From positions 75,211 to 139,210 of IMG/VR virus record IMGVR_UViG_3300027970_000001: a stretch of 64,000 bases of DNA; one strand, written 5' to 3'. This DNA comes from a virus. The notes under the pieces are model-generated. The model made no database searches. It had not been told where the DNA came from and saw only the letters and a list, made by a program, of their open reading frames with translations. Within the stretch, counting starts at the first letter, position 1. Every line of letters starts with the position of its first letter. Positions 2,038 through 58,769 of this stretch are shown one piece after another. The translations under genes and the position numbers were made by a program.

Positions 2038-2307
2038 TCAGCGACGCCGACGGCGTCCGTGTTTGTTGAGGCGCAGCGACAGGCCGGCGCCGCCGGGGCC
2101 GACGTTGAGGAACGAGCCGCCCATGCCTCCGCCGCCGCCGCCGAAGCTCAGGATGGGGAACTTGTACGCCAGGTACCCTAGGCCGCCACCGATGGCCAGA
2201 GCGCCAAGGCCAATTGCCATGGCCGTGCTGTCAGACATCGGCGTCGAAGTGGTGGTCGTGGTGGTCGAAGTGAACTGGCCCAGGCTGGGCGAGTTGAAGT
2301 AGCTCAC
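2038..2307 (-). CDS. single-pass membrane protein, virion-type (MSY leader, TM, LRLN plus Arg tail)
   Basis: MSYFNSPSLGQ; hydrophobic AMAIGLGALAIGGGLGYLAY; ends NKHGRRRRR. Confidence 0.7.
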   Translation of the reverse strand: MSYFNSPSLGQFTSTTTTTTSTPMSDSTAMAIGLGALAIGGGLGYLAYKFPILSFGGGGGGMGGSFLNVGPGGAGLSLRLNKHGRRRRR

Positions 2308-10006: not shown

Positions 10007-10236
10007 TCCCAGCCGGGACCAAGCGGCAGGTTGTCATACCGGGGGTCGACAATTAACAGACCTCGGTCTAGCGGGATGAGCCTGGCCGAGTAGCGTCCGG
10101 TGAGCGTCACAAGCTCGCGTTGAACGCCAGCGGCACGGGGCTGGATGCGGAGGAAGGCGGATTCAGGGAAGCAGATCTTCCCATCCGCATCCACCGTCTT
10201 CACGGGAGGCGCAGCGCCGAGGTACCTGTAGGTCAC
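9994..10236 (-). CDS. small hypothetical protein (MTYRYLG start)
   Basis: TGa-TACCAT 6 nt upstream of the GTG. Confidence 0.5.
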   Translation of the reverse strand: MTYRYLGAAPPVKTVDADGKICFPESAFLRIQPRAAGVQRELVTLTGRYSARLIPLDRGLLIVDPRYDNLPLGPGWEWRM

Positions 10237-30702: not shown

Positions 30703-31059
30703 TCAGACGGCCGCGAAGATAGCGCCGAGCCCGTCACCGCTGTCGCCGAGGTCGTACCGGACGGTGCCCTCGGTGGTGAATGGGATCTGCTTGAACGGGT
30801 AGTCGTAGTTGCCGATCCCAGGCAGCGTGTCGCGCATCATGCCGATGTTGCGACGCGCGCCGGGAATCGGCGTCCTGACGTAGCCGATGTGGTGGGTGTA
30901 GTTCGCCGGCATCCCGATGTTCATGTCGGGGCCCCAGCCGTAGGGCGAGTAGATCGCCCCCGGCGGGCTCATTCGCCACGAGTACGGATCAACCGCCTGA
31001 GCGAACGCCGTCGTCGATGTGAAAGCGGGCGGTGCGCCCATGCCGCGATGGTAGCTCAT
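30703..31059 (-). CDS. Gly/Pro/Tyr-rich virion-type protein (MSYHRGMG leader)
   Basis: Shares the leader motif of the structural cluster. Confidence 0.6.
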   Translation of the reverse strand: MSYHRGMGAPPAFTSTTAFAQAVDPYSWRMSPPGAIYSPYGWGPDMNIGMPANYTHHIGYVRTPIPGARRNIGMMRDTLPGIGNYDYPFKQIPFTTEGTVRYDLGDSGDGLGAIFAAV

Positions 31060-37947: not shown

Positions 37948-37988
37948 GCCGCGCACGCTACAAGCGATGCGGCGAGAGGTCAACGCGG

Positions 37989-38063: not shown

Positions 38064-38858
38064 TCAGAGGACGTCGCGCGAGTGGATGCCGTCGATGAGG
38101 TACTTGATGTCCTTCTCGATGTCATCCGAGCCCTGGACCGACACGCCGGTGCCGGCGCCGTAGCCCACGTCGGTCGTCGGCGCGTTCTGGCCGATCGAGC
38201 CGGCGGGGCCGTTGTCCGGCACGAGGCCGTTGAGCTGCTCGATGATCGACGCGCCGACCGTCTGCCCGATGGGCGACAGGATCGCGACGACCTGGAAGCC
38301 CTGGCGGGGCGGGATCAGGACCGGACGGGCCAGCCGCATGAGCGCCGACGACGTCGGAACGCCGTTGTTCGCGCGGGGCAGGCGGGTGTCCGCGAAGAAG
38401 CCGTCCAGGCCACCAGCGAACGGCGTGTACGCCGTGAAGGTGGTGAGCTGGGGCTTGTCACCGGCCGTGAGCTGCCAGAAGATCTGGTTCTCGGCCTGGT
38501 GGTACAGCTTGTGGACGCGCAGGACGCGGTCGGGGACCGTGCCGTTGACCGCCGAAGCGAGCGGCGCCGACGCGTTCGCGGCGCCGATGTTGTACTGCGC
38601 TTCCAGGTTGACCCGGAAGTACGTCCAGACGCGGACCGCGAGGGTCACGAAGGTCTGGTCGGAGGGGAAGAACCCGCCGGTGGTCAGGTTCGAGATGGAG
38701 ACATCCGCACCCTGACGGGTGAAGAGCTGCATCCGGCCCTGCATCGCGCCGAAGAGACCGGCGTTGCGGCTGCGGAGGTTCTGATTGCCATCCACGCGGA
38801 TGAGCGAATCGTAGAAGGGCTGATGAACGCGCTCTCGGGTACCAACGATCTTCGGCAT
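38064..38858 (-). CDS. putative major capsid protein (jelly-roll type)
   Basis: QPFYDSL...LF...SNLTTGGFFPSDQTFVTLAVRV...LARPVLIPPRQGFQV...YLIDG; strongly biased codons, own terminator, structured leader. Confidence 0.55.
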   Translation of the reverse strand: MPKIVGTRERVHQPFYDSLIRVDGNQNLRSRNAGLFGAMQGRMQLFTRQGADVSISNLTTGGFFPSDQTFVTLAVRVWTYFRVNLEAQYNIGAANASAPLASAVNGTVPDRVLRVHKLYHQAENQIFWQLTAGDKPQLTTFTAYTPFAGGLDGFFADTRLPRANNGVPTSSALMRLARPVLIPPRQGFQVVAILSPIGQTVGASIIEQLNGLVPDNGPAGSIGQNAPTTDVGYGAGTGVSVQGSDDIEKDIKYLIDGIHSRDVL

Positions 38859-46099: not shown

Positions 46100-46789
46100 T
46101 CAGTTCGCGGCCTTGCGGCTGGTGCGGCGCTTGGCAGCCACGGTCTTGGCGCGGCTCGCCTTGGCTTTGGACCGAGCGGACTTGCTCTTCTCGTAGGAGA
46201 GGCCCTTGCCGTAGATGGCATAGACCTCGGGGTAGCGCGCCCGGATCGCGTTGCGGACCTTGTTGAAGTCCGCAGCCGAGCCGATGCGGCCGATGCGCAG
46301 CATCTGAATGGCGGCGTACGCGCGACGCGGGTTGTCGAGCGGCCAGGCGCGGCGATCGGGGAAGACGAACGCCTTGAGCGGAATGCGCTTGCGCTCCGCT
46401 TCGCTCAGGTAGTTGGGCGTGAGGCCGCCGTCGCTACGACGGCTGCGGGATAAACGGCTCGACTTGCGACGACGGCGGCGGTTGGCCGCAACCGACTTGG
46501 GCTTGCGGGCAACCATGGCAAGCACGCCGATGATCACAAGCCCCCCGCCGATCACAGCGGTAGGGACCACCCAGTCGGGCATGCCGGACTGCTCGGCGGC
46601 GGGCTGCATCGGAACCAGCGGCGTGGTGGCAGGGGCAGCGGGCTGCTGCCCGGTGAATAGCCCCACGATCCCGGGAAGAGCAGTCCCGATGGTGCTGGCG
46701 ACCTGAGCGACGTCGCGGCCGGTGTTGTCGACGCCGGGCTTGGACTGACCAAGACCCCGAAGCCCGAGGTGATGAGGATGGTATGCCAT
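46100..46789 (-). CDS. virion-type membrane protein with an extra basic C-terminal domain
   Basis: MAYHPHHLGLRGLGQ, TM, VAANRRRRR, LTPN then LSEAERKRIP..AFVFPDRRAWPL. Confidence 0.75.
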   Translation of the reverse strand: MAYHPHHLGLRGLGQSKPGVDNTGRDVAQVASTIGTALPGIVGLFTGQQPAAPATTPLVPMQPAAEQSGMPDWVVPTAVIGGGLVIIGVLAMVARKPKSVAANRRRRRKSSRLSRSRRSDGGLTPNYLSEAERKRIPLKAFVFPDRRAWPLDNPRRAYAAIQMLRIGRIGSAADFNKVRNAIRARYPEVYAIYGKGLSYEKSKSARSKAKASRAKTVAAKRRTSRKAAN

Positions 46790-46815
46790 GGTGGTCTCTC
46801 TTTCAAACGACAGGG

Positions 46816-47445
46816 TCAGCGGCGGCGGCGATTCTTGGCCACCTTGGAGCGACGGGACCAGAGCCAGGCTCCGCCGCCGATCAGCAGAACTGCTCCTCCG
46901 CCGATTCCGGCGTACATGGCGATCTTGGTCGCCTTCCCTCCAGAAGACTCGGGAGAGCCGCCGCCCTCAGGGTCCCGAGGCGCATTGACTGCGGCTTGAA
47001 GCGCCGCCGACGGAGATGCGCCACCGGCCTCCGGGTACACGTACAGGTCGGAGAAGGTCCCGTTGATGCGGTACCGAGGCATGATGATCCGGGGCCGACC
47101 CGGGAACTCGTCGCCTGCGGTCGCGAACACGCGAACCATGTCGTTGGCGTAGTCGACGGCGTTGCGCCCTGCGTTCGGCTCCCATTCAACGTAGAGCCTG
47201 CCGCGGATGGAGTCCGATCCCCACCGAGCAGCGCGCACGCGGGCGCCGTCACGAGTAAGCGTCGCACGCACGGCGTCCGGCAGTCGCGGGGCATCGGTCG
47301 GGCCGACGCCCTGCACTGTGAGCGCCGCCGAAAGCCACGGCTGGAGCGCGCCTGGCTGAACGACGGTGCGACGGACCTCGGGGGTGTTGCGATCTGCAAC
47401 CTGTCCAAGTCCAGACGCCGAGTAGATGTTGGGAACGTAGTGCAT
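46816..47445 (-). CDS. virion-type C-anchored membrane protein
   Basis: MHY...SGLGQ; TM; VAKNRRRR. Confidence 0.75.
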   Translation of the reverse strand: MHYVPNIYSASGLGQVADRNTPEVRRTVVQPGALQPWLSAALTVQGVGPTDAPRLPDAVRATLTRDGARVRAARWGSDSIRGRLYVEWEPNAGRNAVDYANDMVRVFATAGDEFPGRPRIIMPRYRINGTFSDLYVYPEAGGASPSAALQAAVNAPRDPEGGGSPESSGGKATKIAMYAGIGGGAVLLIGGGAWLWSRRSKVAKNRRRR

Positions 47446-47453
47446 GGCTGACC

Positions 47454-48239
47454 TCAAATTCCAAGGGCACGACGAATCTGCCTGCCTTGCCTGCCCTGTC
47501 GGTACTTAAAATACGCGAATCCGCCCCCAAGCAGGATGGCAGCGCCTACGCCAAGCCCGATGTAAGGAGCCAGCTCCTTGGCGATCGCGCCGGCAGCCTC
47601 AGCGACTGCGCCACCACCTGTCATGCGACGGACAAAATCGGCGCGTTCACTTGGGCTGCATCCAGAGCATGCGCGGTCGGCATAGCCTTGTGCTCTCTCA
47701 AGACGTTCCAAGTCGCCCCAAATGCTAACCCCATACGCGGCGACGACGGCGATAGCAGCCGCCCCCACGATGATAGCGATGGTGATTGGTTCAATGCCCA
47801 GGCCAGAGGCCGCGCCAATCGAACGGCCACTCCTAATCATGTCAAAGGCACTGGTCCAAAGAGTGCGGGCCTCCCGGAGTAGCGCTGCCTGCGCTTCCAA
47901 GTTCCGCTGCCTTTCCGCAGCGTCTGCGACGTTTTTCGCGCCAAGCTGCTTGATGGTTGCAGCCGCCTTGGCGCACTTGCCGACGATGCCAGCCAAGAAC
48001 TGCTTGCGCTCGTCACGGGTGATTTGCGTAAGCTGACCATCGCGCCCCCGCTGCAAGATTCGGTCAAACGCACGCTGGTCAAAGCGGAAGTTTCCGAACG
48101 CGCTCCTCATCTCTGCCGAGACGAGGCGGATGTCCTCCTCAAGAGAGGCAAGCCCGCTCACGGAGCCAGCCACAGCACCGAGGCCGCCGAGACCGTTCAT
48201 GCCGCAGCCGCAGCCTAGCGATCGCGTCGAATAGGTCAC
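47454..48239 (-). CDS. virion-type membrane protein with coiled coil and two TMs
   Basis: MTYSTRSLGCGCGMNGLGGLG; CSGC. Confidence 0.75.
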   Translation of the reverse strand: MTYSTRSLGCGCGMNGLGGLGAVAGSVSGLASLEEDIRLVSAEMRSAFGNFRFDQRAFDRILQRGRDGQLTQITRDERKQFLAGIVGKCAKAAATIKQLGAKNVADAAERQRNLEAQAALLREARTLWTSAFDMIRSGRSIGAASGLGIEPITIAIIVGAAAIAVVAAYGVSIWGDLERLERAQGYADRACSGCSPSERADFVRRMTGGGAVAEAAGAIAKELAPYIGLGVGAAILLGGGFAYFKYRQGRQGRQIRRALGI

Positions 48240-49096
48240 CGGCGTCCCCGCCCACTTCCGAGACGGCGGCGATTCGGCTGAACCGAACGGCGCCGCCTCA
48301 AAATGACCGCGCCAAGACCGAGCGCAACGAAAGCCACACTTCCGCCGATGATGTACGGCAGGTACTCCTGAAGCTTGTCGGGCTCCTCGCCCTCGACCAC
48401 GCGCTCGGTACCGTCAGGAGTGGTAGCCGTGCCGGCCGTGGTGCCAGAGCTTCGCGTTCGCCGGGGCGCCGTCACCGCAGGGAAGGCAGAAAGCGCCGTC
48501 TCAAGCTGCTGCCCAATTACAACAGCATCGGTGATGGTGCGGGTGGAGGGGTCGTTCCTGGGCGCAGGAGACGCCGCACCAAGTTCAGACGCGATGGCGG
48601 TCAGCGCTCGGATGGTGACCGGGCCGGCTCTTCCATCAACGGTGATGAGCGAGCCGGTGCGCGCGGTGCGGTAAGCGTTGATCGCGTTCTGTGCCCAGGT
48701 CGCCGAAACCCTGACGACAGTTCCGTTTACGCGGCGCCCAGCATCCTGGCCGATAGCCCCTCCGGTGGGAGCGATGGCCGTGGGGCGCTCGGCAGAGGCA
48801 CCCGATAAGAGAAGGCGGCCGGAGCCGCCAACCTCGCGTTCAGCAGCCGTTGCCGCAGCCTGGAGCTGGCGCGTGGCGGATGCAATCGATGCCGAGGTCA
48901 CGGCCTGAGAGAACGGGAAGGTCACTCGGACCTTACCGCCCGAGGTCCAAGCGACGGTGACCGGGTTGCCGAAGTAGCTCTGAAGCGCGCGGGTCAGCGC
49001 CGGCCGCACCAGCGACTCTGCCTGAGTCCGGGTGATCCCTCTGGGGGTCAGCTCGGCGGTGCCAGTTCCACTGCTGTAGCTCCATGCGTCAGCCAT
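48236..49096 (-). CDS. virion-type C-anchored membrane protein
   Basis: TM then VQPNRRRLG. Confidence 0.75.
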   Translation of the reverse strand: MADAWSYSSGTGTAELTPRGITRTQAESLVRPALTRALQSYFGNPVTVAWTSGGKVRVTFPFSQAVTSASIASATRQLQAAATAAEREVGGSGRLLLSGASAERPTAIAPTGGAIGQDAGRRVNGTVVRVSATWAQNAINAYRTARTGSLITVDGRAGPVTIRALTAIASELGAASPAPRNDPSTRTITDAVVIGQQLETALSAFPAVTAPRRTRSSGTTAGTATTPDGTERVVEGEEPDKLQEYLPYIIGGSVAFVALGLGAVILRRRRSVQPNRRRLGSGRGRR

Positions 49097-49111
49097 GACA
49101 TCTCCACGCGT

Positions 49112-49810
49112 TCAGACGGTTTGCCCTTCGTCACGAAGAGCGTCGATGTACTGTTCCCACTGCTTGCCGCGCTTGGACGTGGTCGGGTAGAGCCCAACAA
49201 CGCCCTCCTCATGCTCAACGCACATGAGGCCCTCACGGCGGCACATCTTGTCCAGGTCGGTGATCGGCATCCGCACCGCGCACTTGAGCGTGATGAGGGG
49301 CGACACCGTCTTGAGCTTCGCCTTCGCCTCGTCAGCGTCGGTGTAGACGGTCACCTTGTCTCCCATGCCCTTCTTGGACAGGAAAGACTGCACCTGCTGG
49401 CCAAACTTCGACCGGCTGGGGCTCCACGATGCCGACTCGGAATCGGAGGAAAGTGCCGACTCGGAACCCTCGGCGCTGTCGCCTTCGTTCCTCTCTACCT
49501 TCTGGCTCTTCTTCCAGTACAGGTAGCCGCCCACGCCAGCGCCGCTTCCGACCAGCAGCCATGCCCACGTGGGCACACCCATCATCTTGCGAGACAGGAA
49601 CGGCTCAGGGGCAGGGGGCGGAGGCGCAGCCTGACCGATGCCAGCCGGCAGCGGGTAGATTGGAAGGACCGGGGCTTGTTGAACGGGCGCTCCAGCAACC
49701 GCCATAGGGTAGCGCCCTTCGGACGCCCCAACGCGGAGAGCAGGGGAGCGTGCCCCCTGCTCAAGACCATCAAGCGCTTCGTCTTCGATGTCCCAGTCGG
49801 TTCCAAACAT
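49112..49810 (-). CDS. membrane protein with globular C-terminal domain
   Basis: AGIGQ, TM, VERN; TAGAGT 6 nt upstream. Confidence 0.7.
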   Translation of the reverse strand: MFGTDWDIEDEALDGLEQGARSPALRVGASEGRYPMAVAGAPVQQAPVLPIYPLPAGIGQAAPPPPAPEPFLSRKMMGVPTWAWLLVGSGAGVGGYLYWKKSQKVERNEGDSAEGSESALSSDSESASWSPSRSKFGQQVQSFLSKKGMGDKVTVYTDADEAKAKLKTVSPLITLKCAVRMPITDLDKMCRREGLMCVEHEEGVVGLYPTTSKRGKQWEQYIDALRDEGQTV

Positions 49811-49858
49811 GCGAGCACTCTACCCTAAGTGGGTGTCACGTGCGACGCGCCTGACTAT

Positions 49859-50284
49859 TCAGCGGCGCGTGCGACGGGCCCGGCGAGCGCGGCGGCGGCG
49901 ATTGGCCGCGACAGCGCGGGGCGCCGGCTTGCTGCCGAACGCGAGGTAGCCGATGAGGCCGAGCGCCACGAGCGACGCCGCTCCGATGCCGACGTACAGC
50001 ATCGTGTTGTCCTCGGGCTCGGGAGCCGGGGCGAGGGCCGGCGCGCCAGGCGCGACCGTGGGCGCAACTTGCATACCGGTGTAGCTCGCGGACTTGTTGT
50101 CGAGCATTGGGTCGGCGCCCGACTTGTCAGCCGTGGTCGACTTCGCCTGCCCGAGAGCCTGCATGCCCGAGAAGATGTGCGCGTGGAACAGGCCCGAATC
50201 GGCCGTCCGCTTGAACGCGTGATCGGGCTGACCCTCGTCGCCCATGCCCTGGAATAGTCCGCCCTGGAAAATGCCGTTGTCCAT
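49859..50284 (-). CDS. virion-type C-anchored membrane protein
   Basis: GIFQGGLFQGMG; TM; VAANRRRRARRARRTRR. Confidence 0.75.
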   Translation of the reverse strand: MDNGIFQGGLFQGMGDEGQPDHAFKRTADSGLFHAHIFSGMQALGQAKSTTADKSGADPMLDNKSASYTGMQVAPTVAPGAPALAPAPEPEDNTMLYVGIGAASLVALGLIGYLAFGSKPAPRAVAANRRRRARRARRTRR

Positions 50285-50356
50285 TTTGAGTCCTCCGAAG
50301 ATACAGCGCTGAGCGACTGTATCATGAATGAGATGATTGTGAAGTAAACTTGCGCC

Positions 50357-51448
50357 TCAGCGGCTGCTGCGGCGCTTTGCTCGGCGGCGACGGTTGGCTG
50401 CGATCTTCTTGGCCTGCTGCTTCTTCCAAAAGAAGTAGCCAGCAGTACCAGCAGCGAGCACGCCCACGCCGATTGCGATGTGGGTCGTGGTGATGCCGCC
50501 GGATGCGGCCGGAGCAGGCGCTGGCGCGACAACAGCAGCCGGGGGCGCCTCGGCGGTTCCGGGGGGAGCAGCGGGAGGGGCCTCCGAGGTCGCAACGACC
50601 TCTGCGGCGACATCGACAACCTGATCGACGGACTCGCCGCCGGAGTTGAAGGCGTCAAGGTCCGCCCGCGGATCTGCCACCTTCTTCGATTCGACGTCGA
50701 CCGCGTTGGCCTTCTGCTCGGCCTGCTTGACGTCGGCGGAAGCGTCGGAGGCGACCTTCTCGGCCTGCTGGGTCTTGGCGTCGACCTGCTGAACCTCAGC
50801 GGCCTTCTTGGCGGCCTCCTCGGCAAGCCGCTTGGCTTCCGCCAACTTGGCGGCAGCTTCGGCTGCGGTCTTGGCAGAAGCAGCCTCGGCGGCCTTCTTT
50901 TCGGCGGCAGCGGCAGCGGCAGCGGCCTCCTTCTTCTTTCGGCTCAACTCGGCGTCCAAGGCCGCGAACCTCGCGAGCGCGGCGGCCCCGTCTGCACGCT
51001 GCTTTTCCACGGCCTTGAGCGCGGCCTTAGCAGCCTCGGCCTTGGCAACGTCGGTGGCGCTGAGCCACGCGAAGTAGAACGCGGGCTTGTCGAGCGCAAC
51101 CACGTTCAGGCGGCGAAGCGTATCGGACAGCGACGGGTTGCGGATGAACCCAATGGCCTCTCCGGCGTAGAAGCCACGGAGACGCGCGTCAAGCTTGTTC
51201 CGCTTGTTCAGGTCGTCTCGCACGTCCTGGCTGAACGGGCCAATCCAAGCGCCGCTACGGCCTCGGGCGTATGCCGCAGCAAACGCCTGGCTGATGAACT
51301 TCCCGGGAGCATCCGGGCTGAACTTCATCGCCGTTTCAACAAGCCACTTGACATAGGGGTCCGTGCCAGCCGGAATCGCGGCGGAGGTCGGCGACAGCTT
51401 GACGCCAAGGGTCAGGGGAGCGAGCCCGAGGTTGTGATGGTAGGTCAT
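50357..51448 (-). CDS. virion-type membrane protein with Ala/Lys coiled coil
   Basis: MTYHHNLGL; TM; IAANRRRRAKRRSSR. Confidence 0.75.
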   Translation of the reverse strand: MTYHHNLGLAPLTLGVKLSPTSAAIPAGTDPYVKWLVETAMKFSPDAPGKFISQAFAAAYARGRSGAWIGPFSQDVRDDLNKRNKLDARLRGFYAGEAIGFIRNPSLSDTLRRLNVVALDKPAFYFAWLSATDVAKAEAAKAALKAVEKQRADGAAALARFAALDAELSRKKKEAAAAAAAAEKKAAEAASAKTAAEAAAKLAEAKRLAEEAAKKAAEVQQVDAKTQQAEKVASDASADVKQAEQKANAVDVESKKVADPRADLDAFNSGGESVDQVVDVAAEVVATSEAPPAAPPGTAEAPPAAVVAPAPAPAASGGITTTHIAIGVGVLAAGTAGYFFWKKQQAKKIAANRRRRAKRRSSR

Positions 51449-51455
51449 CGTCGAT

Positions 51456-52343
51456 TCACTTCTTGATGGTGGTCGTCTGATGAGCGCTGCGCAGCGTGGA
51501 TGCGAGCGTGGCAGAGGGCGCCCGGAACTTCAGCGCGGAAGCCGAGAGCGAGACCTTCGCGGTGGGGCCGGGAGAAGAGATGAGGCTGCCAAATACGGGG
51601 GCTCGCACGGTCACGCCGGCAAGAGCGCCTGCCACCTGCTGCCGGGCCGCAATCTGACGCGGGCTAGGCTGCGTCAGGATGTTGGTGAGCAGCTCGTCTG
51701 AGATGCGGATCTCATCGCCGTTGGCGTTCGGTCCGAAGTTGATGCCGCTTGGCCAGTAGCCGACGTTGGCACCCTGAGCCTTGGCCTCGGTGTACCAGTT
51801 GCCAAGGGCCGTCACCATCGCCGACTCGTCCTTGGTCGAGACGGGCTGGCTGTTGTCCAGATACTTGGACTGAACCAGCTTGTTGTAGATGGCGTCGGAG
51901 TAGAGGTGGTCGCCCTGAGAGAGGCGCACATACCCGTCCTCGGTGTTCTTACGCCACATCGAGCGCGGCTCGCGCAGCAGGGCGTAAAACGCCTTGTTGA
52001 TGCGAAGGTCCTTCGACTCGTTGGTGTTCGGTCCGAAGTTGAACTCGCCCCTGGCTCCGGGCCAAAGCTCCTTGGCTCGTCCCATCCTGACCCAGACCGA
52101 GCGCAGGGCGCGCATGAAGGGCCCGTCTTCCTTGAGCTGGCCGTCCACGCGGGGCGCCGTAACGAGCGGAGAAACAGCTTGCAGGCGCTTCAGGATTGCG
52201 AGCATGCCACCGAGCACCGCGTCGTCTCCAACGCGGCCCCAGTCCTGCTCATGCTCGAACTGCTGCATGTAGCTGCCGTTCTCGAACGGGGGCAGTTCGC
52301 CGGAGTTCGTGACGGCGATTTCGCCAAGCCTGCTGTAGCTCAT
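51456..52343 (-). CDS. virion-type protein with an internal duplicated domain
   Basis: MSYSRLGE; FNFGPNTNESKDLRI vs INFGPNANGDEIRI. Confidence 0.7.
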   Translation of the reverse strand: MSYSRLGEIAVTNSGELPPFENGSYMQQFEHEQDWGRVGDDAVLGGMLAILKRLQAVSPLVTAPRVDGQLKEDGPFMRALRSVWVRMGRAKELWPGARGEFNFGPNTNESKDLRINKAFYALLREPRSMWRKNTEDGYVRLSQGDHLYSDAIYNKLVQSKYLDNSQPVSTKDESAMVTALGNWYTEAKAQGANVGYWPSGINFGPNANGDEIRISDELLTNILTQPSPRQIAARQQVAGALAGVTVRAPVFGSLISSPGPTAKVSLSASALKFRAPSATLASTLRSAHQTTTIKK

Positions 52344-53782
52344 CGCATCCTCTTGTTCCGACGGCGGTTGGCCACCATCTCAGGGGAAGGCGCCGCAGCC
52401 AGCTTGCGCTTCTGCCGGCGCTTCTTGACCAGGCGCACGGCGACAGCGCCGCCCACGAAGATGAACGTGCCGCCAGCCATCCAGGCCCAGCGCGGCATGC
52501 CGTGGAAGTCGCGCATGAACCAGGAGAGCGGGACTTGCTGCTCGGCCTTCTGGAGCTTCGCCACCGCGGCGTCGATGCCAGCGAGCGCCTGGTTGATGGC
52601 GTCCGAGTTGTTGCTCAGGGCCGACGCCGCGGCCTCGCCGCGCTCGAAGGCGGCGGCGACCGAGCGAAGAAACCCGTCAAGCGACCTCTGGGCCACCGAG
52701 AAGTACATGCAGCGGCGGTACTCGCGCGCGACGCCGATGTTGATCTTGGAGATCTCAGACTGAACGTCGGCCAGAACCTCATCACGAATCTTCTTGGCGA
52801 AACTGCCGTTCGGGTCGTCTTTGGCGGCGACCTCGGTCTGCAACGCAGGGATGTTCCCGACCCCGGTCACAATCTCGGCCCGCGCAGTCGTAAGCTGCGA
52901 TTGAAGCTGGGCAAGCTGCTGAACGGTCTGCTGGGCCTGATCGGACGGGGCTCGCAGAGCAGCAGCGACGATGCTGTCTACTTGTGCAAGGGCGCCGGGA
53001 ACGGCGGCCACGTTCTGGGCGGCCTTGACGACCGAGTTGGCGAGAGCCTCGAAACCCGACGTCATCGCCCGCGCGTCCCGTGTGATGGCCGCTCGGCCAC
53101 CAAGCAGACTGGCGAGCGCCTCGACCGTCACGACCAGGCTCACAGCGGAGGCGGTTGCGGCGGCCTGGAATGCCTGGTCGCTGTCTCCGCTGACGGTAAC
53201 GGGAAACCCAGGAACGAAGATCGTGGGAGCGCCGACCTTGCCATAGGCAGACTTGACGATGTTGGTAACGAGCCTCGTCACCGTGTTGAGGGGCACGGCC
53301 CCAGAGAACTGCAACCCAACCCAAAGCGTGCCGGACGAGGGGCCGCCGCTGGGGTCTTTCATCCAGCCCGAGGTCACAAGCGTGGGAGGAGCAGAAATCG
53401 CCCCGGACAGCTTGAACTTGGCAACCTCTTCGATCAGCGGCTGACCGCCCTTGCCGCCGCCATAGATAAGCTCAAGAGCTTGAGCTGCCTGGGCATCCGA
53501 GATGGCGACGAGGGGAACCGCCACCGCAACGGCCGTGTTGGCAGGGATGGGGTTCGGAGCCGCGACCGGCTGCTTCATCAGCGCGCACTCGGGCGGCACA
53601 ATGATGAACGGGTTGCCCGAGGTCGGCGCGCTGGCCGCTGCGCCAATCTGGCCAAGACGCTCCCTGGCGCTCGGCGAGATCTTCGACAGCCCGCTCGGCA
53701 TCTTGTCCGCCGACACATCGGCGCCGACCGTCTCGGGCACCTTCGGCAGATCTTGGCCCATGCCAGTATAGCGGTAGGTCAC
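52340..53782 (-). CDS. virion-type membrane protein with long helical ectodomain
   Basis: MTYRYTGMGQ; TM; MVANRRRNKRMR. Confidence 0.75.
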   Translation of the reverse strand: MTYRYTGMGQDLPKVPETVGADVSADKMPSGLSKISPSARERLGQIGAAASAPTSGNPFIIVPPECALMKQPVAAPNPIPANTAVAVAVPLVAISDAQAAQALELIYGGGKGGQPLIEEVAKFKLSGAISAPPTLVTSGWMKDPSGGPSSGTLWVGLQFSGAVPLNTVTRLVTNIVKSAYGKVGAPTIFVPGFPVTVSGDSDQAFQAAATASAVSLVVTVEALASLLGGRAAITRDARAMTSGFEALANSVVKAAQNVAAVPGALAQVDSIVAAALRAPSDQAQQTVQQLAQLQSQLTTARAEIVTGVGNIPALQTEVAAKDDPNGSFAKKIRDEVLADVQSEISKINIGVAREYRRCMYFSVAQRSLDGFLRSVAAAFERGEAAASALSNNSDAINQALAGIDAAVAKLQKAEQQVPLSWFMRDFHGMPRWAWMAGGTFIFVGGAVAVRLVKKRRQKRKLAAAPSPEMVANRRRNKRMR

Positions 53783-53796
53783 AGCTCTCTCCGATT

Positions 53797-54153
53797 TCAG
53801 CGGCGCGTGCGGCGACGCTTATTTGGCGAGACAGGCTTCTTCTTGCTGACGGCCATGATCGCGATGCCGGCAATCAGCACGAGGCCGACTCCTCCAGCAA
53901 TCAGCGCGTACATGACAGCGTTGTCTTCGCTCGTTGCGCCCCGCTGACTTGCGTTGAGCAAGCTGGTTGCGAACGCGTCGGTATCCCTCTCTTGGCGAGG
54001 ACGATTCGCAACCGTCTTGAACACCTCGTCCACCGAAGTGGAAGTTGACTCGCGACGCGCGGACGCAGCGGACTTTTGAGATCCGGCGCCCGAGGCGTCC
54101 TTGCCTGCCGAGGACGACTCTTGAAACCCCATGCCTCTTGAATGGTACATCAC
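53797..54153 (-). CDS. virion-type C-anchored membrane protein
   Basis: MYHSRGMGF; TM; VSPNKRRRTRR. Confidence 0.75.
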   Translation of the reverse strand: MMYHSRGMGFQESSSAGKDASGAGSQKSAASARRESTSTSVDEVFKTVANRPRQERDTDAFATSLLNASQRGATSEDNAVMYALIAGGVGLVLIAGIAIMAVSKKKPVSPNKRRRTRR

Positions 54154-54500
54154 CGACCTCGCCGCCTGCGCCTGTTCGGCTTCATCGACCCGCTCGACCG
54201 CATCAGGCTGATGAGCGCAATGATCACGCCCGTGAACCCAAGAAGCTCCATCCGCATCGCTCGCGCGTCGCGGTCCTGCTCGCGCAGCTCGGCAGCGGTC
54301 ACAGCCGGAGCCGGGGCCGGGGCCGACTCAGAGCCAGCCTCGCCAAGGTGCCAGTTGGTCAGGTAAGGAGGGACCGTCTGCGCCACCATGGGCGAGACCT
54401 GCCCGCGGAGCCGCTGCGGCTGGCCATAGTTCGCCCAGACCCACGGATTCATCACGTAGGCGGGCTGGTAGCCGAGCGACCTGTTCACCCTGTAAGACAT
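54150..54500 (-). CDS. virion-type C-anchored membrane protein
   Basis: MSYRVNRSLG; TM; MKPNRRRRRGR. Confidence 0.75.
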   Translation of the reverse strand: MSYRVNRSLGYQPAYVMNPWVWANYGQPQRLRGQVSPMVAQTVPPYLTNWHLGEAGSESAPAPAPAVTAAELREQDRDARAMRMELLGFTGVIIALISLMRSSGSMKPNRRRRRGR

Positions 54501-54973
54501 CAGTAGGCTCCGTGATGATAGTCGCCGAAGCCAGAGGTGCCCTTCGGCAGAGACGCCTGCGATCCAACAGGGGACGTGACATTGGGGACAGGGGCCGCCG
54601 CCGAAACAGGCGCGGCGCTGGCCGCCGGAGAGGTGGCCGACATCGCCATCAGCTTTGGCAAAAGACCGGCGGTGGGGGATCCGGGGGGCGCGGACGCAAT
54701 CTTGCGACCCATCTCCGAAGCGGTGAGCGACGCAAACCCATCGACCAGCGCCTGCTTTTCACCGTCGCTGAGGGTGCCCCAGAAGGTGTCAAATCGCTCC
54801 TTCGACACAGGCCGCTGATCTGACGCGGCCCACGGCCGCTTTTGGTAGGAGTCCCACCCGGCAGAAGCGCTGAGCTTCCCGCCGCCGGAAGCCATCCGGT
54901 AAACGAGATAGCCGCCTCCGACGACGAGCGCGCCAACTAGGAGAGTGTTGGCGGTATCAGGGTTCTTCCGCAT
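54500..54973 (-). CDS. N-anchored membrane protein (inverted arrangement)
   Basis: MRKNP, TM, C-terminal SGFGDY. Confidence 0.7.
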   Translation of the reverse strand: MRKNPDTANTLLVGALVVGGGYLVYRMASGGGKLSASAGWDSYQKRPWAASDQRPVSKERFDTFWGTLSDGEKQALVDGFASLTASEMGRKIASAPPGSPTAGLLPKLMAMSATSPAASAAPVSAAAPVPNVTSPVGSQASLPKGTSGFGDYHHGAY

Positions 54974-54974
54974 C

Positions 54975-55277
54975 TCACTTCTCCTGGGTCTCAAGCTCGG
55001 CGATCCGGGCCTTCATGCTCGAAAGCTCGTTGGCCTTCATCTTCTTGCTGCGCGGACGCCAGTAGCCAAAGTAGAACCACGCGCCGCCGACCGAGAGCGC
55101 GCCAGCGGCGAACATCGTCGCCGGGTGCAGGGCGAAGCTCTTGACGTTGTCGATGAACCCGGGCTGAGCCGGAGGCTCCGTCCCCATGGGGATGCCATAG
55201 AGAGGGTACGGTGCCATGCCGGCGACGGCAGGCGCCCCGCCGGAAGCCTGAGCTGCGTACTGAGCGGGGTTCATCAC
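54975..55277 (-). CDS. small membrane protein
   Basis: TM then KKMKAN. Confidence 0.7.
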   Translation of the reverse strand: MMNPAQYAAQASGGAPAVAGMAPYPLYGIPMGTEPPAQPGFIDNVKSFALHPATMFAAGALSVGGAWFYFGYWRPRSKKMKANELSSMKARIAELETQEK

Positions 55278-56737
55278 TTGCTCCTGCGGCTACGACGCCG
55301 CTTCTTGTTCGCCTTGAGACCGAGCGCGCTGCGCGTGTTGGCAACAACAGCGGCCGTGACCTCCTGGCCCTTCTTGGTGTGCGTCGCGATTGCCCAGATG
55401 GCAACGCCGGCCGCAACGCCTAGGGCCACGTTGCGCATGGTGTTGTCCTGCGCAATCGGAGCGGGGGCAGCGGGAGCGACGGGAGCAGGAGCGGGGGCAG
55501 CGGGCTCGCTGGCAACTTCACCCATGCCGGCGGCTGCGGGCGACTGATACAGCTTGGCGATGTCAGCCTTGGCCGCCGCCTTGTTCTTCGTCAGAGGGGC
55601 GAGGTTCTCGACCGCGCTCTTGCGGAGCTTGGCCTTGTTCTTCACCACGTGCGCGCCCATCGCATCGAGGCTGGGCAGACGAGTGCCCTGGCGGCCCGAG
55701 GACAGGTCCGAAATAGCCGCGTGCATCGCGCAGTGGGCAATCGTGTCCTCAAGCGCCTTCTGAGCGGGCATGCCCATTCGGATCATGCGCTCGGCCACCT
55801 TGTGGCACTTCTCGGCCATTCCGGGCCCAAGCGAGCCGATGGCCCGGACAAGGAACGCCTGGCGGTCCGCAGGGCTTGCCTTCGAGGCCGCCTCAAGCAG
55901 CACGACCGACGCAGCGTCGCGGCCGAACTTCTCGATGCGGCTCGATTGATTCATCATCACTGGACGGAGATGATTGGTGAACGGGCTGTAGGTCCGGTCG
56001 ATCATCGGGCGCCCGCGAAGGCGAGGCACCGTCGTCGAGAAGGTCACACCGCCGCCCGAGGGCTGAACGACGCGCCAGTTGTCGGCCACGACGTCGAACA
56101 TCTCGCTCTGCTGGGTGCCCAGCTCGTCCTCTTCGGCAATGTAGGCCGGGAACGCGTACTGGTGGGAGAACGAACCGTCCTCCGCGCGCCAGGTCACGCC
56201 TTCTTCCATCTCGAAGATGCCGTTGCCGATGACAGCGTCCGAGCCCGAGGCGAACTCGTAGCTCGTGCGGTCATACATCGTCTCCGGGTCGACGTCGGCA
56301 TTCGACGGCATCCTGTTCATCTGAGAAGGCTGGTACTGGCTGACCTTCATCACCGAGTCGACGGTGATCTCAGCCGCATCCTCATTACCAGACAGATCGG
56401 TCCTGGCCATCGACATCGGACGATACCCTCCGCCCGCTCCGGGCCCCCACGGTGAAGCTCCGAACGTCGTCTGCTGAGCGTCCGGGCCATCATATTCCGG
56501 CTCCATCTCGTACTGAGAGGTGCCTTCAACATCAGGAGCGGGAGCCGCGCCAGATCCTGGAGTGGACCGAACATCCTCCTGTAGGTCGTCATCCAGAAAG
56601 GTCCCCTCGGACGAGATGTCCGCGTAGTCCTGAATGTCGAGGTTTGCGTTGCCGCGCATGGTCGGAATCGCCATGTCGTCGCTACCAAACAGATCCAGAT
56701 CATCCAGCTCGTCGCTCATTGTGTCTCCGGCGCGCAC
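55274..56737 (-). CDS. acidic virion-type protein with C-terminal anchor
   Basis: AGMGE, TM, LKANKKRRRSRRSK. Confidence 0.75.
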   Translation of the reverse strand: MRAGDTMSDELDDLDLFGSDDMAIPTMRGNANLDIQDYADISSEGTFLDDDLQEDVRSTPGSGAAPAPDVEGTSQYEMEPEYDGPDAQQTTFGASPWGPGAGGGYRPMSMARTDLSGNEDAAEITVDSVMKVSQYQPSQMNRMPSNADVDPETMYDRTSYEFASGSDAVIGNGIFEMEEGVTWRAEDGSFSHQYAFPAYIAEEDELGTQQSEMFDVVADNWRVVQPSGGGVTFSTTVPRLRGRPMIDRTYSPFTNHLRPVMMNQSSRIEKFGRDAASVVLLEAASKASPADRQAFLVRAIGSLGPGMAEKCHKVAERMIRMGMPAQKALEDTIAHCAMHAAISDLSSGRQGTRLPSLDAMGAHVVKNKAKLRKSAVENLAPLTKNKAAAKADIAKLYQSPAAAGMGEVASEPAAPAPAPVAPAAPAPIAQDNTMRNVALGVAAGVAIWAIATHTKKGQEVTAAVVANTRSALGLKANKKRRRSRRSK

Positions 56738-56768
56738 TGTGACTCAAAAGTGATGCGTTGTGAAGCCG

Positions 56769-57461
56769 TCACTTTAGAGCGATGACGAGGCCGACGATTG
56801 CAATCGCGGCAACCCCGCCGCCGATGGCCAAGGTTCGGATCATGTCGGACCGAGCAGCAAGGCGCGCGGCCTCCTGGCGACCCTGAACTTCAGCAAGGCG
56901 GATGGCTTCGTTTGCCCTCGCGGCAGCCACCTGCGACTCCAGGGCGATCTGCTCCTGATTGCAGCCAGCCGTCTGAGCGGCTGCTGCGCTGCCCTGCATA
57001 AGGGCGCCGCCCTTTAGCAAGCCACCCGAGAAGGTCTCCGTGTACCCTGCAACGAGCTGGCTGCCGCCTGCGCCCACGATGCAGAAGCCTTTCTGGAGGT
57101 CCTTCATGAAGTCGGCGCCAAGGCCACCTCCAGAGAGAGCCTCTGCGCTGCGCTGAGCGGCGCTTGCCTGCAACAAGAAGGCGGTCTGATCTGCTAGGTG
57201 GTTTGCGATAGCCAGCCGGATCGCATCGAACATCGCCTGGCTGTCGCTGACGCCCGCTGCGAGCAGCCTGTCGTACTCGGCGCTGGCGGTCTTAGCCAGG
57301 CCGTTCGACACCTTGTTGACCTCTGACACGAGGGCAGCGCGGCGGCGAGATGGAGGCTTCTTGGCCACCGACAGCATGATGTTTGCCGCGATGAGAGAAG
57401 AGCGAGCCAGGATGGGATCGCTCTTTGCCGCAGTGCCAACTTTGATCTGTGCAGCCATCAC
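56769..57461 (-). CDS. helical C-anchored membrane protein; shares a domain with 55274-56737
   Basis: K.P..R.A.LV...G.A...R....G....A..D.I pattern; GGLG. Confidence 0.7.
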   Translation of the reverse strand: MMAAQIKVGTAAKSDPILARSSLIAANIMLSVAKKPPSRRRAALVSEVNKVSNGLAKTASAEYDRLLAAGVSDSQAMFDAIRLAIANHLADQTAFLLQASAAQRSAEALSGGGLGADFMKDLQKGFCIVGAGGSQLVAGYTETFSGGLLKGGALMQGSAAAAQTAGCNQEQIALESQVAAARANEAIRLAEVQGRQEAARLAARSDMIRTLAIGGGVAAIAIVGLVIALK

Positions 57462-57823
57462 TTGCTCCTCGAACGACGACGATTCTTCTTGACGGCGGGC
57501 TTTGCAAACCCCTGGCCCAGCGCGTAGGCGAGGGCGAGGGGGCCAAGCAGGCCGCCCGCGAGCGCCCAGAGCGCCGTCGATGTGACGTCGCTGGACCTCC
57601 GGTAGCCGTGGTAGGCAAGCGCCCCGGCAAACAGCGCGTTGACCATCGCAAGCGTGGCCAGACCGCCGCCCGCGAACACGCCAGACAGCCCGCCACTCTT
57701 GTCGGTGGACTCCTTGACGCGGAACACGGTCAGCGTCGGATCGACGGTGCTGACGGGGATGGCCCTCAGCCCCGGAAGGCCGCCGTCTTGAGCGTAGTAT
57801 CCACGTTGCGATTGCTGGCGCAT
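57458..57823 (-). CDS. two-TM membrane protein with Arg tail
   Basis: Ends VKKNRRRSRSK. Confidence 0.75.
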   Translation of the reverse strand: MRQQSQRGYYAQDGGLPGLRAIPVSTVDPTLTVFRVKESTDKSGGLSGVFAGGGLATLAMVNALFAGALAYHGYRRSSDVTSTALWALAGGLLGPLALAYALGQGFAKPAVKKNRRRSRSK

Positions 57824-57824: not shown

Positions 57825-58385
57825 TCACACCTCGAAAATGGTGTACTGCTTCACCCGGTCGAGCATCTTCTGCGTGCGCCGCCCAGCAACCGGGTCGAGC
57901 ACGTACCAGAGCTTGGTCCGAGGGTCTTGGGCGCGGCAGAAGACGTGCGTGTGGGACTTCAGCTCGCCCATCCGGCGGGGCTGAAACCCGACGGTCACGA
58001 AGTTCACCTCAGCGCCGACGCATAGGCATCCGGCCGCGATTGCCGTGGCCATGTCATCGCAGTCGAGCGCTGAGACGCCGACGTTGATGTCGTCGATCAT
58101 CCGCTCCGGGTCTCGAATCATCTCGACATGCAGCGGGTCACGGGTGTATCGGCCCGCGTTGCCCCACCACCGGCAGATGGCGATGATCTCGGACTCGTAA
58201 GCCTTCGGCCGAACCCGGTTGACGATTTGTTCGGTGTGGCGCCGAACCTTGATTGAGCGCTCGCCGCGGTCGCCGCGAACTAGCTCGATCATCTTGGCAA
58301 CGGTGTGATCGGTGCCTTGATAGGGCTCCACCGTGCCAACCGCCTGGTTGAACGACGGAGCGTAGTTTTCGGCTCGTAGTCGCAT
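57825..58385 (-). CDS. transglutaminase-like (papain-fold) cysteine protease
   Basis: YTRDP...E...DP...LDCDD (Cys), THVF (His), VLDP (Asp). Confidence 0.8.
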   Translation of the reverse strand: MRLRAENYAPSFNQAVGTVEPYQGTDHTVAKMIELVRGDRGERSIKVRRHTEQIVNRVRPKAYESEIIAICRWWGNAGRYTRDPLHVEMIRDPERMIDDINVGVSALDCDDMATAIAAGCLCVGAEVNFVTVGFQPRRMGELKSHTHVFCRAQDPRTKLWYVLDPVAGRRTQKMLDRVKQYTIFEV

Positions 58386-58427: not shown

Positions 58428-58769
58428 TCATCGACGGGTTGAAAACTTGTCCCCGTCGCGCACGTACACCTTCGGCTGCGAGCGCCCCTGGGCAACCGGC
58501 CTTGCCTCAGAATGCGGCTCGACCCGGATGTCGACCACCTTGGCTCCGTCGCGGGTGATGACCATCGCGAAGTGGCTGCCAGGTAGGATGGACATGGCCT
58601 TGAACAGGCGCGCGGGCATCGCGTAGGCGAGGGCGCCCGGGAACCGGACGATGGCCCGGTCTCCTTGAAACAGAGCGAGCGTGCCGACTCTGCGCTCCTG
58701 CTGGAGCTGAGCAGGGGCGCCAGCGGCTTCGGGTCGCCTCGGGCCAGAGTAGTTTCCGATGCCTTTCAC
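58428..58769 (-). CDS. small beta-barrel-like hypothetical protein
   Basis: TGg-TAGAAT 7 nt upstream of the GTG. Confidence 0.6.
   Translation of the reverse strand: MKGIGNYSGPRRPEAAGAPAQLQQERRVGTLALFQGDRAIVRFPGALAYAMPARLFKAMSILPGSHFAMVITRDGAKVVDIRVEPHSEARPVAQGRSQPKVYVRDGDKFSTRR

Follow-up and report, generated by a model that had tools for sequence, protein, structure and literature searches.

A short N-terminal leader on otherwise unrelated proteins of a large uncultured virus and its possible role as an assembly tag

Nine of the 75 proteins of the window, which is the whole 64,000-nucleotide stretch of viral DNA that was analysed, start with M[STA]Y where 0.45 would be expected (P = 8e-10), and in eight of these nine [LMF]G is found within the first 16 residues (P = 2e-14). 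From its retention in orthologues and in two families of homologues we conclude that this leader, M-[ST]-Y...[LM]-G, is under selection. We propose that it may be an address tag for the assembly of virion-membrane proteins, possibly trimmed, and we give this reading a probability of about 45%. The source virus, whose host is a bacterium, is uncultured and very large, and is probably tailless and membrane-lined.

The leader and the proteins that carry it

Between 46100 and 57823 there are 16 open reading frames, all on the minus strand and spaced by 4-base overlaps or by gaps of at most 72 bases, directly downstream of a gene for a transglutaminase-like cysteine enzyme (57825-58385). The first-pass annotation described this array as about 15 membrane proteins sharing the leader. 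The membrane part of that description stands because a hydrophobic helix is predicted in 15 of the 16, mostly close to the C-terminus, but the leader is present in only eight, together with one decayed copy (48236-49096). The eight leaders quoted there were all located, on the minus strand with starts from 46789 to 54500, and the ectodomains are unrelated as was stated, since the middle domains have no pairwise similarity and BLAST matches are confined to the helix-plus-tail region. A second shared trait, absent from that annotation and stronger than the leader, is a C-terminal helix and, after it, hydrophobic-x-x-Asn-poly(Arg/Lys). A sortase or exosortase C-terminal sorting signal was rejected for these proteins because they lack a Sec signal and have no motif conserved ahead of the helix; the conserved hydrophobic-x-x-Asn sits after the helix, unlike in sortase-type signals.

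Starting next to the enzyme gene, 57458..57823 codes for a 121-residue protein with two hydrophobic segments and the tail VKKN-RRRSRSK, without the MSY leader. The 230-residue product of 56769..57461, with a helix at its extreme C-terminus and neither leader nor basic tail, is conserved and is present in two copies in relatives, while the best-conserved member of the array (43-44% identity to relatives) is the acidic 487-residue product of 55274..56737, which has a C-terminal helix and the tail LKAN-KKRRRSRRSK. These are followed by a single-helix protein of 100 residues (54975..55277) and by a protein of 164 residues (54500..54994) in which a basic N-terminus (..RKN-P..) precedes an N-terminal helix. 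Leaders then appear in succession, each with a C-terminal helix and a basic tail: MSYRVNRSLGY (start 54500) and MKPN-RRRRRGR on the 116-residue product of 54150..54500; (M)MYHSRGMGF (MYHSRGMGF start 54150) and VSPN-KRRRTRR on the 118-residue product of 53797..54153; and MTYRYTGMGQ (GTG start, 53782) and MVAN-RRRNKRMR on the 480-residue product of 52340..53782, whose orthologue in the relative G003 has the N-terminus MSYRAQHGFGLGQ. The 295-residue product of 51456..52343 has the leader MSYSRLGE (start 52343; MTYRMPRVRRNGLGQ in the G003 orthologue) and is without a clear membrane helix. It is followed by a 363-residue protein (50357..51448) with the leader MTYHHNLGL (start 51448), a middle rich in Ala, Lys and Glu, a C-terminal helix and the tail IAAN-RRRRAKRRSSR, and by a 141-residue protein (49859..50284) that has an N-proximal FQGMGD without MSY, a C-terminal helix and the tail VAAN-RRRR...

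In the remaining part of the array, the 232-residue product of 49112..49810 has a central helix, a conserved soluble C-terminal domain and no leader. The decayed leader, MADAW-SYSSGTG, is on the 286-residue product of 48236..49096, which has a C-terminal helix and the tail VQPN-RRR and whose orthologues have the intact starts MSYAGLGQ and MSYLGQ. The 261-residue product of 47454..48239 starts with MTYSTRSLG...MNGLGGLG (GTG start, 48239; MSYFTSTAKRS...GMNGLG in the relative G002) and has two helices near its C-terminus. The last two genes code for a 209-residue protein (46816..47445) with the leader MHYVPNIYSASGLGQ (start 47445; MSYLAAAH.. and MSYALSGE.. in orthologues), a C-terminal helix and the tail VAKN-RRRR, and for a 229-residue protein (46100..46789) with the leader MAYHPHHLGLRGLGQ (start 46789; MSYRMVDRRWRGVGGLGQ in the orthologue of the relative G004) and a helix at residues 78-94, followed by VAAN-RRRRR and a basic C-terminal domain.

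The leaders reported outside the array are real, and they too are on the minus strand: MSYFNSPSLGQ on an 89-residue protein with a helix and a C-terminal RRRRR (2038..2307), MTYRYLGAAPP on an 80-residue protein with a GTG start (9994..10236), and MSYHRGMGA on a 118-residue protein that adjoins the capsid genes and belongs to a large conserved family (30703..31059). In this last family 85 of 100 homologue clusters start with MSYH..[LM]G, in which the spacer varies from 0 to about 40 residues. The rest are without the N-terminus owing to start calls, and among those with a complete N-terminus the leader is present in 85 of 86. For the 54150..54500 family the figure is 24 of 25, as M[ST]Y[RK]V, with the Asn-poly-Arg tail in 22 of 25, and the residue preceding the Gly can be L, I, V, R, E or N. 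The leader is also kept in orthologues from relatives of 150-300 kb, again with spacers of 0 to about 40 residues. Of the three relatives that were fully read, two have about 8-15 carriers and one about 8, most of them encoded in the interval that the enzyme and capsid genes enclose, and in more distant relatives an N-proximal GLG(Q) is retained on C-terminally anchored proteins. Since the second codon differs between the leader genes (AGC, TCT, ACC, GCA), the leader is a signal at the level of the peptide. Proteins with the leader tend to have a C-terminal helix (odds ratio 10, P = 1e-6); at least three carriers (30703, 51456 and 9994) have no membrane helix. Gln follows the leader Gly in only 30-40% of leaders, against a background of 3.7%, and some leaders contain two units in tandem, such as the repeated SY..GMG of G002. 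The first-pass exclusion of a Sec, Tat or pilin signal is borne out, because hydropathy over the first 30 residues does not exceed 1.6 (maximum Kyte-Doolittle over 11 residues), so that there is no hydrophobic core, and no RR-x-F-L-K, lipobox Cys or hydrophobic stretch after the Gly was found in the leaders.

The adjoining enzyme and the jelly-roll protein

Heading the array is a gene (57825..58385, minus strand) for a 186-residue transglutaminase-like cysteine enzyme that is a candidate for processing or recognizing the leader. Cys109, His147 and Asp164 are invariant across six orthologues, two of them distant (down to 41% identity), and their order and spacing are typical of the transglutaminase-like superfamily. 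In the Atlas clusters nearest to the enzyme (score 0.97), Transglut_core accounts for 65-66% of the members, and some are Peptidase_C93. The window enzyme itself is not matched by Transglut_core (PF01841), two of four orthologues are matched at E = 0.003, which is below the Pfam cut-off, and PF01841 is precomputed on a few homologue clusters of the enzyme. The gene was found upstream of the array in all eight related genomes checked, and the family profile matches gp34 of phage SSIP-1 at E = 8.8e-14 with the triad residues aligned. Upstream of it, in the window and in relatives, is a conserved gene for a coiled-coil protein rich in Glu and Arg (826 residues; 58813..61293, minus strand), possibly a scaffold or tape measure.

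A 264-residue protein (38064..38858, minus strand; GC3 0.92), the one modelled of three candidate shell proteins, was predicted to be a single jelly-roll, capsid-like protein by an AlphaFold2 model from a 39-sequence alignment (pLDDT 75.5, pTM 0.78). In the PDB it is matched best by the capsid protein of SPV1 (Foldseek probability 0.94-0.98, VIA Z 7.5) and then by those of HCIV-1, HHIV-2 and P23-77 (Z 5.6-6.0); jelly-roll cement proteins of tailed phages are also among the structural matches. Two BFVD matches (probability 0.97-0.98) have 211 and 256 residues, lengths equal to those of SSIP-1 gp46 and gp47. No Pfam match to HK97 capsid, portal or Terminase_6N was obtained in five complete relatives, and no packaging ATPase was recognized. 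From the many membrane proteins and the homology to SSIP-1 we infer that the virion of this lineage probably has a lipid membrane inside the capsid.

Possible role of the leader

The position of the array behind a cysteine-protease-like gene makes the tag resemble an address, or a label for trimming, used in building the particle. In the reading that we prefer, the virus would be large, SSIP-1-like and built of jelly-roll proteins, probably with an internal membrane, and M-[ST]-Y...[LM]-G would be a lineage-specific tag for proteins of the virion's inner layer, which would be associated with the membrane. The C-terminal helix would anchor most carriers in the membrane; if the Asn-poly-Arg tail after it faces the DNA, the free N-terminal tag would therefore be on the capsid-facing side, where the catalytic domain of the enzyme would also lie. 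One common partner would read the tag during assembly, and the best candidate is the transglutaminase-like enzyme heading the operon, which may clip after [LM]-G. Alternatively, the partner could be the shell or a scaffold. Location in the virion, topology, partner and any cleavage are all inferred here, and the tag may be cut, may be an arm that binds the capsid or may be a sorting signal. Some observations count against this reading. Since the residues around the Gly are variable, the supposed cleavage site would be loose; the invariant part is the extreme N-terminus, M-S-Y, and a simple site of cleavage would seldom look like this. Units in tandem are more to be expected of a binding motif than of a site that is cut. 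The carriers without a helix are a further difficulty, the positive-inside rule would make the poly-Arg tails cytoplasmic, in conflict with a simple PRD1-style topology, and the enzyme might serve at entry, by acting on the cell wall like other hydrolases carried in virions.

Could the leader serve membrane biogenesis in the infected cell and not the virion? A viral or host chaperone or insertase would then read it, and it would keep signal-less, C-terminally anchored proteins competent for insertion or set their topology. The strong link to a C-terminal helix and the lack of a Sec or Tat signal on the carriers favor this, and some device is needed to overcome the real difficulty of topology that the poly-Arg tails create. 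However, a helix is missing from at least three carriers, seven helix-bearing proteins of the array have no leader, and known tail-anchor systems recognize the C-terminal helix and not the N-terminus, as does the Get3/TRC40 pathway for tail-anchored proteins; thus we regard this function as rather unlikely. It is unlikely, too, that the leader has no signalling role and is a remnant of a single ancestor, or of a shuffled N-terminal cassette, whose termini evolve slowest. The genes are adjacent, both ends are common, pairwise similarity is detectable only at the ends and one array member is duplicated in relatives, all of which would agree with such a history. Yet the leader persists where conserved proteins of the relatives are 38-75% identical and spacers vary from 0 to about 40 residues, its carriers are scattered over 50 kb (2038, 9994, 30703), it is confined to the exact N-terminus even at GTG starts, and near-100% retention of three to four residues is not expected under drift.

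The neighboring enzyme, being in the transglutaminase-like superfamily, raises the question whether it is a true transglutaminase that uses the Gln after [LM]-G as acyl donor and joins the N-termini covalently to lysines of the shell or of one another. The excess of Gln after the Gly agrees with this. Most leaders nevertheless have no Gln, even the well-conserved GMGF, SLGY and GMGA, and most prokaryotic and viral members of PF01841 and Peptidase_C93 are hydrolases or proteases, which makes cross-linking very unlikely. Least probable of all is maturation by a clan CE protease cutting (M/I/L)-x-G-x↓G or (M/I/L)-x-G-G↓x as in adenovirus, although jelly-roll viruses of eukaryotes use such proteases. 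The first-pass annotation had several sites fitting this adenain consensus; in the window only LRGL↓G and MNGL↓G do, of 17 G-x-G leaders only about 3 have M, I or L at P4, and x-[LM]-G is all that many others show. The search that it suggested for an adenain/Ulp1-like protease gave no match to Peptidase_C5 or Peptidase_C48 at E <= 0.1 in the five complete relatives and no such protease in Pfam scans of about 45 window proteins; a very divergent member could escape searches of this kind. The transglutaminase-like enzyme is a better candidate for the partner of the leader.

Comparison with known systems

Adenain cuts sites on pVI, pVII, pVIII, pX and related adenovirus precursors. Adenovirus is likewise a jelly-roll virus with Gly-rich sites near the termini of several virion precursors, but the window leaders mostly miss the consensus and no clan CE protease was matched. 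In SSIP-1, a cultured, membrane-containing phage, the homologue of the window enzyme, gp34, is annotated as a structural protein of the virion. The order of genes is the same there as here: the enzyme comes first, next a series of small proteins with C-terminal helices, and after these the capsid proteins. Three open reading frames of the SSIP-1 array have an N-proximal G[LM]G, ORF36 starting with MSHRH..QGMGD. SSIP-1 differs in its genome of 44 kb as against 150-300 kb here, in gp34 being anchored in the membrane by a C-terminal helix, which the window enzyme is not, and in having neither a strict M-S-Y start nor Asn-poly-Arg tails. The SSIP-1 and window capsid proteins do not match in sequence, and no leader or processing is described for SSIP-1 in the literature examined. 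The vertical single beta-barrel, internal-membrane viruses P23-77, HCIV-1, HHIV-2 and SH1, together with SPV1, have the capsid proteins to which the 264-residue jelly-roll is structurally closest, at middling Z-scores (<=7.5), and their virion modules also encode many small membrane proteins; the genome here is 5-10 times larger, and we know of no shared N-terminal tag in these viruses.

In function the leader may be compared with the capsid targeting sequence of phage T4, which is likewise a short N-terminal leader common to unrelated particle proteins, with a protease gene in the same morphogenetic module. In T4, a tailed phage with an HK97-fold head and soluble cargo, this sequence is removed from the internal proteins by the prohead protease gp21 after Leu/Ile-x-Glu. 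The window carriers differ in that they are membrane-anchored, have another motif and adjoin a candidate enzyme that is transglutaminase-like, and their cleavage is putative. Since HK97 capsid, portal and Terminase_6N were not matched in the relatives, the leader is therefore best described as one that would work like the T4 system and not as a member of it.

The N-terminal leader and its conservation

The window has a GC content of 61-69% over most of its length and is coded mainly on the minus strand. The array at 46100-57823 on this strand comprises 16 ORFs that are joined by 4-base overlaps or separated by gaps of at most 72 bases, and sigma-70 promoter-like and terminator-like sites within it are not above chance. 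Since the ORFs are so tightly packed and such sites are not in excess, the array is read as one operon-like block. Of the 16 ORFs, 15 have a hydrophobic helix, which in 11 is no more than about 50 residues from the C-terminus. The first-pass annotation had described about 15 membrane proteins sharing a leader; the membrane proteins are there but only eight carry the leader. These start, all on the minus strand, at 46789 (MAYHPHHLGLRGLGQ), 47445 (MHYVPNIYSASGLGQ), 48239 (MTYSTRSLG..MNGLGGLG), 51448 (MTYHHNLGL), 52343 (MSYSRLGE), 53782 (MTYRYTGMGQ), 54150 (MYHSRGMGF), and 54500 (MSYRVNRSLGY). The similar leaders reported outside the array, at 2038-2307, 9994-10236, and 30703-31059 on the minus strand, are all real. 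The array proteins have no pairwise similarity outside the helix-plus-tail region, as expected if their ectodomains are unrelated, and the leader lacks a hydrophobic core and does not qualify as a Sec, Tat, or pilin signal, both as had been claimed; neither is it a lipoprotein signal.

A start of the form M-[STA]-Y was found in 9 of the 75 called proteins where 0.45 would be expected, because 0.6% of internal positions have the [STA]-Y dipeptide (binomial P = 8e-10). In eight of these nine, [LMF]-G follows within 16 residues, as it does for 17% of the [STA]-Y pairs inside proteins (P = 2e-14). The second codon of the leader varies among AGC, TCT, ACC, and GCA, and GTG is the start codon in three cases; thus, the constraint is on the peptide and not on the DNA or RNA; an origin at the DNA or RNA level was also rejected because many of the starts overlap the preceding stop. 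The GTG starts together with the overlapping stop and start codons point to a prokaryotic host. That the leader is an ATCUN metal site (X-X-His after removal of Met) was rejected because His is at position 4 in only about one fifth of the leaders. Two variants were seen on other proteins. The small conserved protein at 58428-58769 (minus), which lies between the gene of an 826-aa coiled-coil protein and the enzyme gene and has no helix, begins, as do its orthologues (L008, L009), with MKGIGNY, MKVGIGNY, or ..LRGIGGY, a variant with an N-proximal G-I-G motif, and a 228-aa protein near the capsid-like gene may have a Gly-tag variant, M-S-G-M-G-G, if it starts at an internal Met.

The 264-aa capsid-like protein (38064-38858, minus), which is well conserved, when used as query retrieved seven IMG/VR contigs, of which five were judged at least 90% complete with lengths of 150-300 kb, two of these five having terminal repeats; the array-head gene as query retrieved the same related genomes. 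The leaders of the orthologues, MSYKVNRALGF, MSYKVDRSLGF, MSYRAQHGFGLGQ, MTYRMPRVRRNGLGQ, MSYRMVDRRWRGVGGLGQ, MSYAGLGQ, and MSYLGQ, have a variable spacer. The three relatives analysed in full have about 8-15 leader proteins each, mainly between the enzyme and the capsid-like genes, and over the window and these three genomes a C-terminal helix was found in 12 of 22 proteins with the leader versus 69 of 643 others (odds ratio 10, P = 1e-6). In the 30703-31059 family, 85 of 100 homologue clusters start with MSYH...[LM]G, the spacer ranging from 0 to about 40 residues and the remaining clusters missing the N-terminus owing to start calls, and in the 54150-54500 family M[ST]Y[RK]V is kept in 24 of 25 clusters while the residue preceding the Gly is variable. 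Among 40 non-identical leaders this residue is L in 29, M in 8, and F in 3; the Gly is at residue 5-17, another Gly is found two positions earlier in 43%, and Gln comes next in 30%. In two genomes that are more distantly related (GC 59% and 71%), C-terminally anchored arrays are present with N-proximal GLG(Q/D) or HLGQ, but there the M-S-Y start is looser and the basic tails are weaker. Thus, (G)-[LM]-G-(Q) would be the older core and M-S/T-Y a clade-specific cap. One leader in the related genome G002 (L029), at about 150386 in the record, has two tandem units, MSYFETLPGMG and then PSYSDGMG, as if SY...G-M-G were a repeatable binding motif.

The C-terminal helix and basic tail

The stronger shared feature of the array, which was absent from the first-pass annotation, is at the other end of the proteins, namely, the C-terminal helix with a hydrophobic-x-x-Asn-basic tail. 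Asn-[RK]3 or longer terminates 11 of the 75 window proteins, of which nine belong to the array, and the position three residues ahead of the Asn is invariably taken by V, I, M, F, or L (expected 0.29, P = 1e-14). In the array the tail comes after the helix, with a short basic linker between the two. These tails, all on the minus strand, are found at 46100-57823 and also at 2038-2564, 13025-15184, and 17290-19011, the last of which shows that at least one soluble protein has the Asn-poly-basic tail. Among the 25 homologue clusters of 54150-54500, 22 retain hydrophobic-x-[A/P]-N-[RK]-R. The 719-aa polyvalent protein at 13025-15184, with GNAT and ADP-ribosyltransferase domains, has a similar Asn-plus-basic end, ..ITKN-RRTSKRTSRRRR, and looks like a packaged, injected effector with the array-type tail.

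The Arg and Ser codons of the basic tails (e.g., ..AGGAGC.. and ..GAGGAG..) lie 6-12 bases ahead of the next start codon. Since these stretches, at 52343-52370, 55277-55300, and 57461-57485 on the minus strand upstream of start codons, resemble Shine-Dalgarno sites, the tail codons may have a dual role in coding and in translational coupling.

The capsid-like protein, the array-head enzyme, and SSIP-1

The genes recognised by Pfam and PHROGs are all accessory ones, namely, GP88, PcfJ, polyvalent ART, SNF2, NUDIX, PAPS-reductase-like, DnaJ, and LAGLIDADG. Five complete relatives gave no Pfam match to Terminase_6N, HK97-type capsid, portal, or Pox_A32 ATPase, and the matches of the ten G001 proteins that were scanned (those longer than about 450 residues and some that have a Walker A motif) were limited to helicases, a MoxR/VWA pair, and the like. 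Nothing above noise was found for the array proteins in Pfam and PHROGs, and no match was found for the array DNA or for the capsid-like, 487-aa, and 480-aa proteins in GenBank phages, or for the capsid profile and the 910-aa protein in PDB sequence searches. The 264-aa capsid-like protein (GC3 0.92) was modelled from a 39-sequence alignment as a confident single jelly-roll (pTM 0.78). Its best PDB match is the SPV1 capsid protein (Foldseek probability 0.94-0.98, VIA Z 7.5), followed by HCIV-1, HHIV-2, and P23-77; since jelly-roll cement proteins of tailed phages also come near Z 5, the fold by itself cannot decide the matter. The model also matched two BFVD entries of 211 and 256 residues (probability 0.97-0.98) with consecutive accessions. 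These are the exact lengths of gp46 and gp47 of SSIP-1 and, from the lengths and the consecutive accessions, we infer that the entries are these two proteins; hhalign and hmmsearch gave no link between the capsid-like family and SSIP-1 proteins.

Two further shell candidates, of 331 and 228 aa, are neighbours of the capsid-like gene at 33388-34383 and 32686-33372 (minus). Between it and the PAPS-reductase-like gene is the ORF at 36313-37983 (minus), which was considered as an intein in a packaging enzyme and rejected because it is a free-standing double LAGLIDADG homing endonuclease. A shorter, 428-aa version is in the same place in the relative G001, whose SNF2 helicase has an intein with a LAGLIDADG domain. 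The window also has one tRNA-Leu gene (8098-8179, minus, anticodon TAG). Its end at 62000-64000 is unlike the rest, with GC rising to 73.5%, overlapping ORFs in all frames, and short GC-rich tandem repeats (three 33-base units at 63757-63858), and could represent non-coding DNA or one end of the genome. Metagenome bins assigned to Phycisphaeraceae, Planctomycetota (a 106 kb contig), Deltaproteobacteria, and Acidobacteriota contain relatives of the capsid-like gene (L048-L051), and these are possible hints to the host, binning being weak evidence.

The array is headed by a gene (57825-58385, minus) for a 186-aa transglutaminase-like protein in which Cys109 (in D-C-D), His147, and Asp164 are invariant in six orthologues, down to 41% identity. 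Pfam Transglut_core was matched by two orthologues (E = 0.003), and Transglut_core members make up 65-66% of the nearest Atlas clusters (0.97), which also include some Peptidase_C93. All the genomes tested, three close relatives and five others, have the gene, and in each it is upstream of the array. With the profile, only spurious Kelch-design matches were obtained in PDB sequences, and tblastn found no match in GenBank phages, SSIP-1 being found by the profile only. There it matched gp34, annotated as a structural protein, with E = 8.8e-14 and with the three catalytic residues aligned. SSIP-1 is a cultured, tailless, membrane-containing phage that has been grouped with two-capsid-protein, vertical single beta-barrel viruses (PMC6356626, PMC4958249). 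Its gp34 has a C-terminal helix of its own, and so do all of ORFs 35, 36, 39, gp41, and 42 downstream and, later, 50, 52, gp53, and 54. An N-proximal G[LM]G is found in three of these anchored proteins, and the start of ORF36 reads MSHRH..QGMGD. The homology of the enzyme to gp34 supports reading the window array as a virion-membrane module, for which SSIP-1 is the sole experimental anchor; GenBank phage searches found no homologue in other cultured phages.

A candidate assembly tag and known systems

The sequences show an N-terminal tag that is position-specific and under selection, on unrelated proteins most of which are anchored at the C-terminus, and a conserved cysteine-enzyme gene at the head of the operon with an intact triad and homology to a virion protein. 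We propose that the tagged carriers are inserted in the inner membrane of the virion with their poly-Arg tails toward the DNA and their N-termini toward the shell and the enzyme, and that a single partner would recognise the tag during assembly. The candidate partner is the enzyme, which could possibly clip after [LM]-G. We put the probability of this reading as a whole at about 0.45. Simple cleavage fits poorly because the presumed site is loose while M-S-Y is invariant, because some leaders have two tandem units, and because three tag carriers have no helix. A further difficulty is the positive-inside rule, which would put the poly-Arg on the cytoplasmic face, unlike in a PRD1-style vesicle. 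That the tag is itself an insertion or topology signal is unlikely, and that it is a historical remnant is rather more so. A Gln-donor tag for cross-linking is more doubtful still, and adenain-type sites, which had been suggested from the (M/I/L)xGx|G consensus, are hardly credible. The remaining probability belongs to something else. Thus, the observation of a shared leader is confirmed, while its interpretation as a sorting or cleavage signal or a capsid-binding peptide is partly supported: the signal is real, and it is not adenain-like.

A broader proposal, which we make only tentatively, is that a widespread lineage of tailless, membrane-lined bacterial viruses with genomes of 150-300 kb has a two-ended protein zip code of its own. 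The N-terminal M-S-Y...L-G tag would be recognised, and perhaps clipped or cross-linked, by the virion transglutaminase-like enzyme, the C-terminal helix and hydrophobic-x-x-Asn-poly-Arg tail would link the membrane to the genome, and dozens of unrelated proteins would be loaded into the inner membrane layer. To our knowledge, how proteins are chosen for the internal membrane of membrane-containing phages is largely unexplained, and we know of no maturation protease or addressing tag described in them. If true, the zip code would give membrane-containing phages their first described maturation or addressing system. The finding supplies a candidate enzyme and a tag that is short, portable, and testable; since cultured SSIP-1 has a homologue in gp34, a bench test is feasible now, and foreign proteins could possibly be loaded into such particles by means of a defined tag. 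With 915 clusters at E <= 1e-5 in the enzyme family alone, the lineage is abundant in metagenomes. As far as we know, its genomes exceed in size those of all cultured phages of the same build by a factor of 5-10 and, therefore, its assembly rules bear on the scaling-up of jelly-roll viruses.

No description of the lineage or the tag was found in the literature. Leader tags on virion proteins are of a known kind, and the present one would be such a tag in an undescribed viral lineage and with a candidate enzyme. The T4 capsid targeting sequence and the adenovirus precursor sites are likewise short shared leaders on unrelated particle proteins with an adjacent protease-like gene. However, the tag belongs to neither: unlike in T4, Pfam searches of five complete relatives found no HK97 head genes and, unlike in adenovirus, most leaders do not fit the adenain consensus and a clan CE protease was not found in these relatives. 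The C-terminal end of the array proteins is not of the sortase type. The closest real relative is the gp34 module of SSIP-1.
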